Shown here one piece after another: positions 23,115 through 62,717 of a stretch of 64,000 nucleotides of DNA. Position numbers and translations under genes: made by a program. A model generated the notes under the pieces. The model saw only the letters and a list, made by a program, of their open reading frames with translations. It did no database searches and was not told the origin of the DNA. Each line of letters begins with the position of its first letter. Positions within the stretch are counted from its first letter, which is position 1. This DNA comes from Promethearchaeati archaeon SRVP18_Atabeyarchaeia-1 (GTDB taxonomy: Archaea > Asgardarchaeota > Atabeyarchaeia > Atabeyarchaeales > Atabeyarchaeaceae), in contig CP147779.1 in NCBI GenBank assembly GCA_037308085.1, positions 2,112,001-2,176,000 on the forward strand, written 5' to 3'.

Positions 23115-23847
23115 GGATCTGTTACCTCTGCGGTTGGTGAGTTTAAATGGGATTTTTGGCTTATTTAGTTTTATGCAGGCAGTTAAAGCGGTGCAGGTAC
23201 CATACGAGCCTACAAGTGGTGTTCTCAGCCTCCTTGAAACCTTCAGAACCATGGTTAACCACTGCATCCGCGTCGGCCTGGAGAGGAATGCAACTTCCAG
23301 GCTCAGGCTGCAGAGCGAGACGTACCACCAGCTAAGCGGCTTCGGTCTCCACACCTGGTAAAGCCTCTCAGCCATCGAGGCTGCCACCGCCATCCTGAAG
23401 AACTACCGGAAAGCGAAAAGAAGGCGGCAGAACATTCGAGTGCCGAGGGCCAAGAAACTCACGGCCAAACTGGGAAACCAAGGCTAAAAAGTCGTTGATG
23501 GCAGACTGGGAATTCCGATCAAGCCCAGAGAGTACTTCTACGTTCCCCTGCATAAGAGGGCTGCGCAGTTCCTATCGGATGCCGCGCCCAAGTTGGGCTC
23601 AGTGACCTTGACTGCCTGCACGGTTTCAGTGGTTTTCTCAAAGACCCGAAAGCAAGAACCCTGGAATGCTGCGGGATAGGCCGCCACGTAAATGCCTGCT
23701 TGAACATGCTGAAAGCCCAAGATGAAAGCCTGCGGTTCAGGCTGGATCGCTCCGCACATGTAGCCGTGATTAGTCCCCTAAGCAAGGCTATGAGCCAAAG
23801 CGGAGAAGTTAACCAAACCGGTTATCAACCGCAGAGGTAACAGAACC
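23115..23847 (+). mobile_element. tnpB: Non-autonomous TIR element carrying an internally deleted tnpB pseudogene (copy A)
   Basis: Ends GGATCTGTTACCTCTGCGGTTG...CAACCGCAGAGGTAACAGAACC (19-bp perfect core inverted repeat). tnpB starts at ATG 23173, has stops at 23359 and 23485, and has a 559-bp deletion relative to copy B at an AAGACC microhomology (23641-23646). Confidence 0.9.
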
Positions 23848-54293: not shown

Positions 54294-55208
54294 TCACTTC
54301 TTGTATTTGATGAAGGTTCCGTTCTCGTACTCTTCGAATGCTATTCTGAGTTCTTCCTGCGTATTCATGACGATGGGGCCATACCAGGCAACCGGCTCAA
54401 GGATGGGTTTTCCCGATACCAAGAGAAACCTCGCCTTGTCACTCATCGTACTGATCTCGAGCTGAACGCCATCGTCGAAGATGATCAAGTTTTCCGGTGC
54501 GATCATGGCTTTGCGCTCCAAGTCGAAGTAGTTGGCACCTTCCACTTCGAAAGTGTACGGATCCCTCCTGTCATCGAAGTACCCCTTTCCTTCAATCACG
54601 TAGGCGAAAACTGTGTGACCGCGCTTGACATCAAGCTTGAGATCTGATTTGGCAGGAACTGTGACATCCAGGTACCTGGGCTCGGTCACAATATCCTGAA
54701 CCGGTCCCTTTGCTCCATTCACTTCGCCGCAGATGATCTTAGCCTTGGAGCCCCCCTTAAGAGTCACTTCCGGTATCTGGTTGGCTTTGACTTCTCGGTA
54801 GCGAGGGTCCATCATCTTGTGTGAGGCTGGGAGATTTGCCCAGAGCTGGAAGCCCCACATCAGTCCATCCTTCTGTCCCTTGGGCATTTCCTGGTGGATG
54901 ATCCCGCTTCCCGCAGTCATCCATTGTACATCCCCTGAACCGATAACACCCTTGTTGCTCATGCTGTCGCCGTGCTCGACTCGTCCGTGCAGAACGTAAG
55001 TGACCGTCTCGATACCTCGGTGTGGGTGCCAAGGAAATCCGCTCAGATAGTCCCTAGGATTGCTGGAGTGGAAGTCATCAAGCAACAAGAAAGGATCGAG
55101 TTGGGGAACGTGGTAGGATCCGAAGGCCCGCTTCAGGTTTACGCCCGCCCCCTCAATTGTGGGCTTGCTTCGCATTACTCTCTTGATTCTTCTCGTGCCG
55201 CTCATCAT
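54294..55208 (-). CDS. Pirin family protein
   Basis: DPFLLLD, GFPWHPHRGIETVTY, QWMTAGSGI.HQE, QLWANLP, GPIVMNT. Confidence 0.96.
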   Translation of the reverse strand: MMSGTRRIKRVMRSKPTIEGAGVNLKRAFGSYHVPQLDPFLLLDDFHSSNPRDYLSGFPWHPHRGIETVTYVLHGRVEHGDSMSNKGVIGSGDVQWMTAGSGIIHQEMPKGQKDGLMWGFQLWANLPASHKMMDPRYREVKANQIPEVTLKGGSKAKIICGEVNGAKGPVQDIVTEPRYLDVTVPAKSDLKLDVKRGHTVFAYVIEGKGYFDDRRDPYTFEVEGANYFDLERKAMIAPENLIIFDDGVQLEISTMSDKARFLLVSGKPILEPVAWYGPIVMNTQEELRIAFEEYENGTFIKYKK

Positions 55209-60056: not shown

Positions 60057-61163
60057 CTACCCCATGGTCATCTCTTCTACTTGAATGCCTCTCCTCTGGA
60101 GTTCTCGGAGGACCAGTTTGGAAACCTTGTCGTCCATGCCAAGAACCTCAAGTGGTAGGACACCCCTCCGTTGTATCTGCTTCCGGGCTACAAGTAGCGA
60201 CATGATGGCTATTGGATAACCCGTCGTGCGAGACATGGAGGATATCTTGTTCCTATCGTCGTACCTGTCGAGCATGCGATACCTTACAGACTCTGCTTCT
60301 CCTTTTACTTCTACTTCTAGTATTGTGATGTCTCTTTCTCCCTTTTCCAGTGCCAGCGTCGAGGAGATGAAGGCCTCCATGAAGTCTCTTGGTCTTATTC
60401 CAAGGATCTTTGGCTCCTTCGCGAAGAGACCCATGTGAACCATAGTCTTGATTTTCTCCACATGCCCGGGGTACCTGATCGTCTTCTCGTCCATTTCCTT
60501 GAGCTTCAGGGTATCCACCAGAGTTCTGAGGCCATCCGTGTAGAAGCACTCGAGTTTTCCGATGCCCGGGAAGTCGAAGGTTTCAAGACCCGTTAGGGCA
60601 TCGACCTCGACCGTCACTCCGTTCTTCACTATCCGCGCCTTGCGGGTGTACTCATCAACCAGCGCTTCCGCTGAGAAGACAAGTCTGTAGTTCAGAGGGG
60701 GTGTAGGTTTCTCTGGCAGGCCGCCAACCTTTATGTGGGCTTCAGTTGGATTCTTCACCTTGGTCATTCCCAGTCCAACCAGGAAGTTGCTGAATCCAGG
60801 GGCGACCCCACAATCTGGCACGATGATAACCCCTGCGCCTTTTGCCTTCTCGTCGAGAGTCAGGGGATTCTCTTCTCCGAAGGAGACATCAACAAGATCC
60901 ACTCCCGCCCTGATCGCCGTCTCCATCACCCCGAACCCCAAGTTACCCGGAACTGCTGACGCCACAACGTTGTACCCACTCTCCATGACCTTCAACAGCG
61001 TCTTTTGGTCCTTGAAGTCCATCTTCACCACTCGGCAACCTGGGATAGTCTTCGCTTCTCGGTCTCCAACTATCACCTCTGCGCCGCTCCTCGCCAACTC
61101 TCGTGCCAAGACGCCACCTATCATTCCCGCACCAAGCACCAGTATCTTCGGATGTTGGCTCAT
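60057..61163 (-). CDS. Saccharopine dehydrogenase family / lysine 6-dehydrogenase
   Basis: LGAGMIG, D.SF, DCGVAPG.SN, VGGLP..P.PPL.Y, TDGLRTL, KTIRYPGH, SM.RTTG. Confidence 0.9.
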   Translation of the reverse strand: MSQHPKILVLGAGMIGGVLARELARSGAEVIVGDREAKTIPGCRVVKMDFKDQKTLLKVMESGYNVVASAVPGNLGFGVMETAIRAGVDLVDVSFGEENPLTLDEKAKGAGVIIVPDCGVAPGFSNFLVGLGMTKVKNPTEAHIKVGGLPEKPTPPLNYRLVFSAEALVDEYTRKARIVKNGVTVEVDALTGLETFDFPGIGKLECFYTDGLRTLVDTLKLKEMDEKTIRYPGHVEKIKTMVHMGLFAKEPKILGIRPRDFMEAFISSTLALEKGERDITILEVEVKGEAESVRYRMLDRYDDRNKISSMSRTTGYPIAIMSLLVARKQIQRRGVLPLEVLGMDDKVSKLVLRELQRRGIQVEEMTMG

Positions 61164-61231
61164 GAGAAACCACCGTGATACCCTCTTGAATGAATAGCGA
61201 CTTACCCCGAGGGTAATATATTACTTCCTCT

Positions 61232-62523
61232 GGTTCTGTTATCTCTGCGGTTGATAACCGTTTGGGTTAACTTCTCCGCTCTGGCTCACCGCCTTATTTA
61301 GGGGTCGGATCACGGCTACATGTGCGGGGCGATCCAGCCTGAACCGCAGGCTTTCATCTTGGGTTTTGAGCAGGTTTAAGCAGGCGTTTACATGTCGATC
61401 TGTTCCGCACCATCCTAGGGTTTTCGCTTTCGGGTCTTGCATGATGCACCCACACACCGCGCAAATCCTAGAAGTGTTCCACGGACTGACTTTGACGGTT
61501 TGGACTCCCGCCCAGAGAGCCTTGTACTCGATGAAGCCCTGCAGCTTGCGGAAGCTCCACGAGTTCAACCTCCGCTTCAGTTTCCTGGAGTGTTTGCTTA
61601 TCTTCTGAATCCTCCCGTTGAAGCTGTTGACGCCCAAGACCTTCCTGTTAATCGCCCTGCGGATATGTCTAAGATCCTCGAGGATAATGCCTTGCTCCCT
61701 GGCTTTTGCTTGTCTAACTATCGCTGAACTCACCTGGTGCAGGACTGTGTTGACCTTGTTGTTCTGGTTGGTGAACCATCTTCTCTGAATCTTCTTGGCT
61801 ACCCGCTTGTCCTTAGCGTACTTGGCTTGAACCTTTCGTACACGCTCGAAGTATCCGTGCCTCGCCTCTGAAACCCTCTACAGATCGTGGCTTTCAATAG
61901 TTAGCTGTCCATCTTCTTTTGCGCTTGCTCCGTCCAACGAGCGTTCATTCGTGTCGTACGCGATGTAACCCTTTGGTTCGGCGACCTCAGCGGTCTTCGA
62001 GAAAACCAGCGAAACCGTGCAGGCAGCCAAGGACACTGAACCCAACTTGAGCGCGGCATCCGATAGGAACTGCGCAGCCCTCTTATGCAGGGGAACGTAG
62101 AAGTACTCTCTGGGCTTGATCGGTATTCTCAGTTTGCCGTCAACGAATCTGTAGGCCTGGTTTCCCAGTTTGGCCGTGAGTTTCTTGGCCCTCGGCGCTC
62201 TAACAATCCGGCGCCTTCTTTTCGCTTTCCGGTAGTTCTTCAGGATGGCGGTGGCAGCCTCGATGGCTGAGAGGCTTTACCAGGTGTGGAGACCGAAGCC
62301 GCTTAGCTGGTCGTACGTCTCGCTCTGCAGGCTGAGCCTGGAAGTTGCATTCCTCTCCAGGCCGACGCGGATGCAGTGGTTAACCATGGTTCTGAAGGTT
62401 TCAAGGAGGCTGAGAACACCACTTGTAGGCTCGTATGGTACCTGCACCGCTTTAACTGCCTGCATAAAACTAAATAAGCCAAAAATCCCATTTAAACTCA
62501 CCAACCGCAGAGGTAACAGATCC
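61232..62523 (-). mobile_element. 1292-bp tnpB-only element with IS6-like TIRs and 8-bp near-perfect TSD (copy B)
   Basis: Ends GGTTCTGTTATCTCTGCGGTTGATAA (61232-61257) and TCACCAACCGCAGAGGTAACAGATCC (62498-62523); flanks CTTCCTCT (61224-61231) and CTTGCTCT (62524-62531). Confidence 0.9.
61239..62465 (-). pseudogene. tnpB: TnpB RNA-guided nuclease, full length (408 codons) with two in-frame stops
   Basis: RuvC-I IAYDTN, RuvC-II IILEDL, W.F.KL..FIEYKA, V.P.NTS..C..CG, RuvC-III DRHVNA..N; stops at 62277-62279 (TAA) and 61878-61880 (TAG). Confidence 0.92.
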
Positions 62524-62717
62524 CTTGCTCTGAAAAGAACGCTTTCTGAGACAGAGAAAGCTGGACATTCCGCACATATAGGCACGGACGCAATACGGAC
62601 TGCGATAGCGAAGGAAGAGTTGACGGATCCTTCTTGTTCACCTCGTTTCCTAGCCCCGCATTTGGATTGATTAATACGCACCTGAGGCGAGCCTCAAGCC
62701 AAGTTGGACCCCAGTAC

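Follow-up and report, generated by a model that had tools for sequence, protein, structure and literature searches.

The DNA analysed here, hereafter the window, is a stretch of 64,000 nucleotides from Promethearchaeati archaeon SRVP18_Atabeyarchaeia-1 (contig CP147779.1, forward-strand positions 2,112,001 to 2,176,000). Close to its end, positions 61232-62523 form a unit of 1292 bp bounded by terminal inverted repeats (TIRs), the sole gene of which is a tnpB read from the minus strand. The 3' end of this gene overlaps a structured RNA module resembling the guide RNAs of TnpB nucleases (omegaRNA), and the whole unit is bracketed by short direct repeats that have the length of the target site duplications (TSDs) made by the IS6 family of insertion sequences (IS). 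The features of the element and of a second family member in the window are the following, where Y stands for pyrimidine, R for purine and TAM for target-adjacent motif.

61212-61231, minus strand: guide region of the omegaRNA, predicted from TnpB biology, made of the downstream TSD copy and its flank (AGAGGAAGTAATATATTACC on the tnpB strand); the flank begins where the structured RNA and the TIR stop
61224-61231, no strand: 8-bp TSD, copy at the tnpB 3' end, CTTCCTCT, matching 62524-62531 at 7/8 positions
61232-61253, no strand: TIR at the tnpB 3' end, GGTTCTGTTATCTCTGCGGTTG; its positions 8-10 give the tnpB TAA
61232-61391, minus strand: omegaRNA-like structured module that shares the terminal ~150 nt of tnpB and stops at the TIR tip; compensatory pairs, 193.9 bits with covariance model R1
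61239-62465, minus strand: tnpB pseudogene of 408 codons, with in-frame TAA (62277-62279) and TAG (61878-61880) and terminal TAA (61239-61241)
62490-62496, minus strand: TATA-like box TTTAAAT, ~28 nt upstream of the ATG, kept in the aligned copies
62502-62523, no strand: TIR at the tnpB 5' end, reverse complement GGATCTGTTACCTCTGCGGTTG, partner of the inverted-repeat pair
62524-62531, no strand: 8-bp TSD, copy at the tnpB 5' end, CTTGCTCT, from the direct-repeat comparison
62532-62535, minus strand: TAM-like (Y)TTR position outside the upstream TSD; TTTC in this copy, with both T kept and C instead of R
23115-23847, plus strand: second family member, shortened to 733 bp by an internal deletion; both TIRs, the first ~158 codons and the omegaRNA-like module remain, and a TSD is missing

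The inverted-repeat arms are 22 nt each and complementary at 20 of their 22 positions; a comparably good pair is expected by chance in 2 kb with an estimated probability of ~4e-4. A first-pass annotation of the window had recognised the repeat and given it ~26 bp, a generous length, as positions 23-26 add just two matches out of four. Its 8-bp direct repeats with one mismatch were found again as described, and so was a unit devoid of transposase: no further open reading frame (ORF) of whatever size fits inside the 1292 bp. The same annotation located the tnpB stop codon in the right TIR. The stop lies indeed inside a TIR, but this is the right end only by gene orientation and is the left repeat by window coordinates. 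At the other end of the gene, the archaeal promoter geometry of the TTTAAAT box implies that tnpB would be transcribed from its own promoter as a near-leaderless mRNA.

The tnpB frame runs from 62465 to 61239 without frameshift and its product matches the Pfam profile Cas12f1-like_TNB (4e-12). The two internal stops were overlooked in the first-pass annotation. Intact sister copies feature Tyr and Ser at the positions of the TAA and the TAG, and the window copy is therefore a pseudogene; any activity at this locus would then need TnpB provided by an intact copy. An altered genetic code that reads through both stops and leaves the copy functional could be imagined from a frame otherwise open across 408 codons. 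It is highly improbable, considering that the stops are mixed, that the intact sisters have sense codons there and themselves terminate with TAA, and that neighbouring genes are normal table-11 ORFs. Recoding was rejected on account of the mixed stops and of the sense codons.

The element sits 69 nt upstream of the ATG of a same-strand ORF of 368 amino acids (60057-61163). The predicted guide region spans an AT-rich, TATA-like stretch (TAATATATTA) upstream of that ORF.

A family of TIR-bounded tnpB elements

The host genome is a single contig of 2.81 Mb. BLASTN of the element against it retrieved ~10 further copies with 79-86% identity, plus the 733-bp derivative found in the window. The similarity of every copy stops at the TIR tips (query positions 29-34 and 1312-1330, the tips being at 33 and 1324) and no copy extends past them, so that the 1292-bp unit delimited from the window letters is borne out by copies whose divergence sets in a few bases at most from the repeat tips. 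The two halves of the 733-bp derivative are 86% and 95% identical to the copy at 61232-62523, an imbalance that suggests recombination between copies, and its RNA module is recognised by covariance model R1 at 23688-23847 (200 bits). Intact frames of 408 amino acids are present in 5 of the 11 copies of this family (family A), for example at genome positions 1251822-1253116, while 6/11 are broken.

A scan for TIRs revealed three end variants in the genome, type A (GGTTCTGTTACCTCTGCGGTTG), type B (GGTTCTGTCAAGTCTTCGGTTG) and type C (GGTTCTGTTAACTCTTCGGGTG). Type-C TIRs enclose a second TnpB family (family C) that has 36-39% protein identity to family A; its members start like family A (MQAVKAV) and their frame again finishes at a TIR-borne TAA. 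The family-A copy at genome positions 655232-656518 (L009) carries type-B TIRs, which suggests end exchange between subfamilies. Through the change in the TIR its stop codon is TGA in place of TAA, and the frame still ends in the TIR. The 8-bp flanks match at 7/8 or 8/8 positions in 11 of the 15 elements of this genome, the chance of a match of at least 7/8 being 3.8e-4 per element. TIRs and TSDs are both lacking from a control group, the 16 other TnpB homologues that the genome encodes (~25% identity), which presumably represent usual IS200/IS605-type copies living alongside the TIR-bounded families.

The family-A coding region also contains a TIR-like 22-mer (GGTTCGGTAATCTCAGCGGTCT, with variants), at 61975-61996 of the window, ~545 nt from the 5' end, and at equivalent sites of other copies (for example genome positions 54552-54573 and 1252565-1252586). 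This internal resemblance may be a coincidence.

In the aligned TnpBs of families A and C the RuvC residues D171 and E263 are invariant, and the Asp of RuvC-III is present in 4/6 family-A and 3/3 family-C sequences. The zinc-finger CxxC...CxxC is found in family C and is reduced in family A. These proteins score 62-69 bits with TIGR01766 (cut-off 32), while with NCBIfam guided_TnpB (cut-off 100) family C lies above threshold at 109.1 bits and family A below it at 89.7. Profile matches to TnpB and Cas12f chains in the PDB cover the C-terminal third only.

TnpB relatives with 31-77% protein identity are encoded by Bathyarchaeia, Nitrososphaeria and other Asgard metagenome-assembled genomes. A strict detector found TIR pairs of the GGTTCTG type at 34 of 80 relative loci. 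The TSD length noted in the window recurs in these elements: among 33 scorable loci of other genomes 18 have perfect 8-bp duplications and 5 a match of 7/8, and TSDs of at least 7/8 flank 22 of 52 elements on metagenome contigs. The nearest relative that bears a name is Candidatus Atabeyarchaeum deiterrae group 2, whose TnpB copy is 77% identical and has perfect 22/22 TIRs; PMC11291895 and PMC11529989 deal with Atabeyarchaeia genomes. Close matches were limited to the Atabeyarchaeia family among the 151 Asgard genomes sampled, which suggests exchange with co-resident archaea. Comparison of the window locus with the sister genome Atabeya-2 yielded no synteny and no empty allele, the flanks mapping 150 kb apart. 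Judged from these sequence comparisons, the TIR-bounded tnpB architecture is old and widespread in archaea, not a one-off capture.

The omegaRNA-like module and the motif at the target site

The last 160 nt of the 11 family-A copies share a common fold, with compensatory changes within the coding region. Covariance model R1 was built from this 3' structure and run on diverged elements, where its matches end at independently determined TIR tips; it matches 68 of the 80 metagenome relatives. In 34 diverged sequences 89.9% of the cells are paired, as compared to 64% in shuffled controls and 30-45% with slid partners, percentages that are somewhat inflated because the alignment was fitted to R1 itself, and 29 of the 34 pairs change on both sides. 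One helix is formed by TIR positions 7-10 and an upstream GUUA that covary, and the TIR is thus under a double constraint. The covariation supports the identification of the structured 3' RNA ending at the TIR tip as the predicted omegaRNA, overlapping both the tnpB 3' end and the TIR as had been anticipated from the window alone.

Eight mini-elements of 257-381 bp (seven of them 257-269 bp) consist of TIRs and the omegaRNA-like module with little else. They have mostly type-B TIRs (for example genome positions 868840-869096, 1260433-1260701 and 2205592-2205851), and several are flanked by perfect 8-bp TSDs with TTG or TTA beside the upstream copy.

A short motif resembling a TAM adjoins the TSD. 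When 31 elements were oriented by their tnpB, the three bases immediately outside the upstream TSD copy were T (26/31), T (23/31) and R (22/31), with Y before them, while the mirror flank beyond the downstream copy read Y (24/31), A (17/31) and A (11/31). This TTR motif was spotted post hoc and was hence retested on metagenome contigs. Since a first scan of these contigs with a fixed GGTTCTG core had given just 8 usable elements, a scan in which the RNA model fixed the 3' tip took its place. The retest on 21 dereplicated independent elements gave T in 16/21, T in 21/21 and R in 15/21, versus A in 7/21 and 9/21 at the mirror positions (Fisher p of 0.012 and 5e-5 for oriented T against mirror A). 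Mini-elements oriented by their RNA module have TTG or TTA at the same place in 6/8 cases. An empty site would read TTR followed by TSD and flank, which is the sequence that a flank-derived guide would match.

IS6-like transposases and probable movement in trans

The genome has two matches to DDE_Tnp_IS240, and both lie within larger TIR-bounded units. The unit at 614149-618567 (4.4 kb) has arms of 65 nt, the outer 24 nt of which are identical to the end of the TnpB element, and a TSD of 7/8; the unit at 549276-555829 (6.55 kb), whose transposase of 383 amino acids with a SWIM domain is encoded at 549896-551047, has type-C-like ends and a TSD of 8/8. Their TIRs begin with GGTTCTGT, as in the TnpB element. 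The single IS240 match of Atabeya-2 is enclosed by type-B ends in a unit of 6.16 kb, with a TSD of 8/8. The three units have in common the transposase gene (70-80% nucleotide identity) and the TIRs only, while their cargo differs. DDE residues are kept in all three transposases, two of which feature an N-terminal SWIM/zinc-ribbon extension while the third is shorter at its N-terminus. They score 64-65 bits with Pfam DDE_Tnp_IS240 (cut-off 27) and IS240-type genes are contained in all five other TIR-TnpB genomes tested. By their profile matches they are archaeal IS6-like enzymes that pass the Pfam threshold and stay just below that of NCBIfam IS6.

The cargo of these transposase units of 4.4-6.6 kb includes an HxlR-like helix-turn-helix protein, DUF5678, an aspartyl-protease-like ORF and an ORF of 995 amino acids.

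The near-identical ends and the 8-bp TSDs of the transposase units support well a mobilisation in trans, and the TnpB elements are probably moved by an IS6-like transposase encoded elsewhere in the genome. The first-pass annotation had imagined a TnpB captured by a non-autonomous DDE-type element and mobilised in trans by an IS6 transposase. DDE transposases with matching ends exist in this genome and the non-autonomous, trans-mobilised state is supported, but the idea of a single capture event gives way to an old architecture. Search for TIRs within 1.5 kb on either side of IS6-like genes in four other genomes gave none that was convincing; these loci were probably too short, because carriers in the two complete Atabeyarchaeia genomes measure 4-6.6 kb.

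The element at 61232-62523 is best explained, with a probability of roughly 0.8, as a decayed member of a non-autonomous family in which TnpB and a 3' omegaRNA-like module are placed between IS6-like TIRs, are probably moved in trans and would home by cutting of empty sites. Confidence is high for the architecture and the trans-mobilisation, and moderate for the homing function. In the proposed sequence of events the IS6-like transposase would bind the shared TIRs and move in trans TnpB elements as well as omegaRNA-only mini-elements. Transcription from the internal TATA-box promoter would proceed through the TIR into the flank, yielding an omegaRNA whose guide is the TSD plus downstream flank, the TSD being its first 8 nt. 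TnpB-omegaRNA would recognise and cut the unoccupied allele (TTR, then TSD, then flank), while occupied sites would be spared by the TIR that breaks the guide match after 8 nt. Recombinational repair off the occupied chromosome copy would finally spread or retain the insertion.

A wider proposal is put forward only tentatively, as its chances are rated somewhat short of even. TnpB-omegaRNA might be the homing or retention module of an IS6-like DDE family across Asgard, Bathyarchaeia and Nitrososphaeria, with a TTR TAM outside the TSD. The family would be organised in three tiers, carriers of transposase and cargo, carriers of TnpB and omegaRNA, and omegaRNA-only mini-elements, which borrow their missing parts in trans.

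Several observations weigh against these interpretations and feed alternative ones. A tnpB and an IS6-like transposase were not found within one TIR pair, nor was such a transposase found within 3 kb of the tnpB of 80 relatives. The TnpB units are therefore always non-autonomous, and the trans link is drawn from shared ends and TSD length, not from transposition seen. The enzyme whose TIR (type A) matches best is devoid of the N-terminal zinc finger that the other two transposases possess, and may be inactive. NCBIfam IS6 scores of 116-121 bits are slightly below the cut-off of 125, the long transposase form also matches IS1-type zinc-binding N-terminal models, and the membership of archaeal IS6-like elements is disputed, Harmer and Hall placing the archaeal 'IS6' elements in a family of their own (PMC6807381). 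A DDE transposase of another family with GG..CTG ends and 8-bp duplications could then move the elements, the IS6-like genes being bystanders. This is quite unlikely when the only DDE_Tnp_IS240 genes of two complete genomes are each inside an element with the same TIRs and an 8-bp TSD, IS6 is far ahead as best family (other families score at most 47 bits) and IS240 matches accompany TIR-TnpBs in every other genome tested. The reading as an ordinary IS200/IS605 element of the IS1341 type, with tnpB only and coincidental inverted and direct repeats, draws on how common tnpB-only elements are and on the ~16 other TnpB homologues of the genome. It is refuted by TIRs and 8-bp TSDs that dozens of elements from several genomes have at identical positions, and by their absence from those 16 homologues.

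The homing function faces a more serious competitor, in which the architecture stands and TnpB with its RNA is cargo, either passive or employed otherwise, such as a regulator or a relic, and TTR reflects where the IS6-like transposase prefers to insert. There is a palindromic component in the flank motif (R-N8-Y, with R 22/31 facing Y 24/31) and TTA or TTG adjoins one TSD copy in 2 of 3 cargo elements that have no TnpB, so that part of the TTR signal may come from the target preference of the transposase. Two intact family-A copies (L009 and L011) carry Asn or Gly where RuvC-III otherwise has Asp and may be nuclease-dead variants or in early decay, and the 6 broken copies among the 11 of family A also speak for passive cargo. 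Bacterial IS6 elements form replicative cointegrates and do not excise, which makes the empty site that TnpB would need to cut questionable. Passive cargo is nevertheless unlikely, though less so than the alternatives above. In two independent sets of elements TT has a preferred side with respect to tnpB and omegaRNA, which is unexpected of a transposase acting on symmetric TIRs, and its position is exactly the one required by TAM geometry. Members from different phyla retain both the catalytic D and E and the RNA structure, and the omegaRNA-only mini-elements display the motif in the same orientation in 6/8 cases.

Relation to known systems and significance

That solo TnpBs with inverted ends of the DDE type may be mobilised in trans was already proposed in 2023 (Altae-Tran et al., PNAS, PMC10691335). 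Six TnpB branches (DDE-1 to DDE-6) linked to DDE transposases were described there, all with inverted terminal repeats, and solo TnpBs with ends like those of transposase-bearing elements were presumed to be mobilised in trans; IS630 is the sole family named in the main text. Families linked to TnpB are given as ISL2, IS630 and IS1031 in a 2026 review. IS6 is not named as TnpB partner in the main text of PMC10691335 or in that review, and a whole-word literature search for TnpB and IS6 returned nothing relevant. The present elements resemble the DDE-1 to DDE-6 branches by having TnpB within inverted terminal repeats, a tnpB 3' end near the transposon end (within the 250 bp used as criterion) and solo copies with the ends of transposase-bearing elements. 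They differ from them in that the transposase is never linked to tnpB, that the TIR provides the tnpB stop and takes part in the omegaRNA 3' helix, that an oriented TTR abuts the 8-bp TSD and that omegaRNA-only mini-elements occur. The novel points are a partner transposase of IS6-like type, a TIR fused with both the tnpB stop codon and an RNA helix, an oriented motif adjacent to the TSD, and derivatives that retain the RNA only.

The TIR of the element reads GGTTCTGTTA(Y)CTCTGCGGTTG, its first 9 nt being identical to the consensus GGTTCTGTTGCAAA of IS6/IS26 ends (PMC6807381). It starts with GGTTCTGTT and conserves G1, G2 and G7 of the family (IS26, IS257, IS1216 and archaeal relatives), and it has the TIR of at least 14 bp, the GG start and the G at position 7 by which such ends are recognised. 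Other shared traits are the 8-bp TSDs, which the IS6 family makes (PMC7986276), partner elements that encode DDE_Tnp_IS240, and the existence of derivatives of the miniature inverted-repeat transposable element (MITE) type. Classical members are ~800 bp long with one transposase ORF, whereas the ends studied here enclose tnpB, the RNA module only, or 4-6 kb of cargo; one passenger-carrying IS6 member and two MITEs are listed in PMC7986276. A TnpB unit without transposase is a non-autonomous derivative and not an IS6 member proper, and the partner transposases differ from the family by their scores slightly under the NCBIfam cut-off and by the SWIM/zinc-ribbon N-terminal extensions of two of them.

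Similarities to the IS1341 group of IS200/IS605 are the size of ~1.3 kb, tnpB as sole gene, and the omegaRNA at the 3' end with flank guide and a TAM by the insertion site, which are predicted here. IS200/IS605 elements have no TIRs or TSDs but subterminal hairpins and a Y1 TnpA (2026 review), in contrast to the 22-nt TIRs and 8-bp TSDs of this element. The likeness to Fanzors resides in RNA-guided nucleases (predicted in the present case) riding DDE-type transposons with TIRs and TSDs, with a TAM tied to the target or TSD region (2026 review). The hosts are archaea (Asgard, Bathyarchaeia, Nitrososphaeria), not eukaryotes or giant viruses, and the RuvC-II Glu is canonical, with no relocation next to the zinc finger: the Glu of the GIILED motif precedes the first Cys by ~70 residues in family A and by ~58 in family C. 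The likeness is one of architecture, not of shown ancestry. A study of Atabeyarchaeia mobile elements (PMC11529989) reports five IS-like transposons with no mention of TnpB, IS6 or inverted repeats.

The persistence of TnpB is thought to rest on the repair of losses caused by scarless excision of IS605 and IS607 elements, and its possible role in a target-duplicating DDE transposon is discussed in PMC13565253. The family described here offers a clean prokaryotic test of that role. It combines defined TIRs, an 8-bp TSD as would-be guide start, a candidate 3-nt TAM and intact copies with candidate transposases in the same complete genome and natural omegaRNA-only derivatives. The archaeal IS6-like ends are able to carry kilobases of cargo, which is exceptional in the IS6 literature. 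For applications, the family draws attention to archaeal TnpBs that are compact and have a short, T-rich candidate TAM. For the biology of these mobile elements, it represents a prokaryotic analogue of the Fanzor situation, found in Asgard archaea among others.

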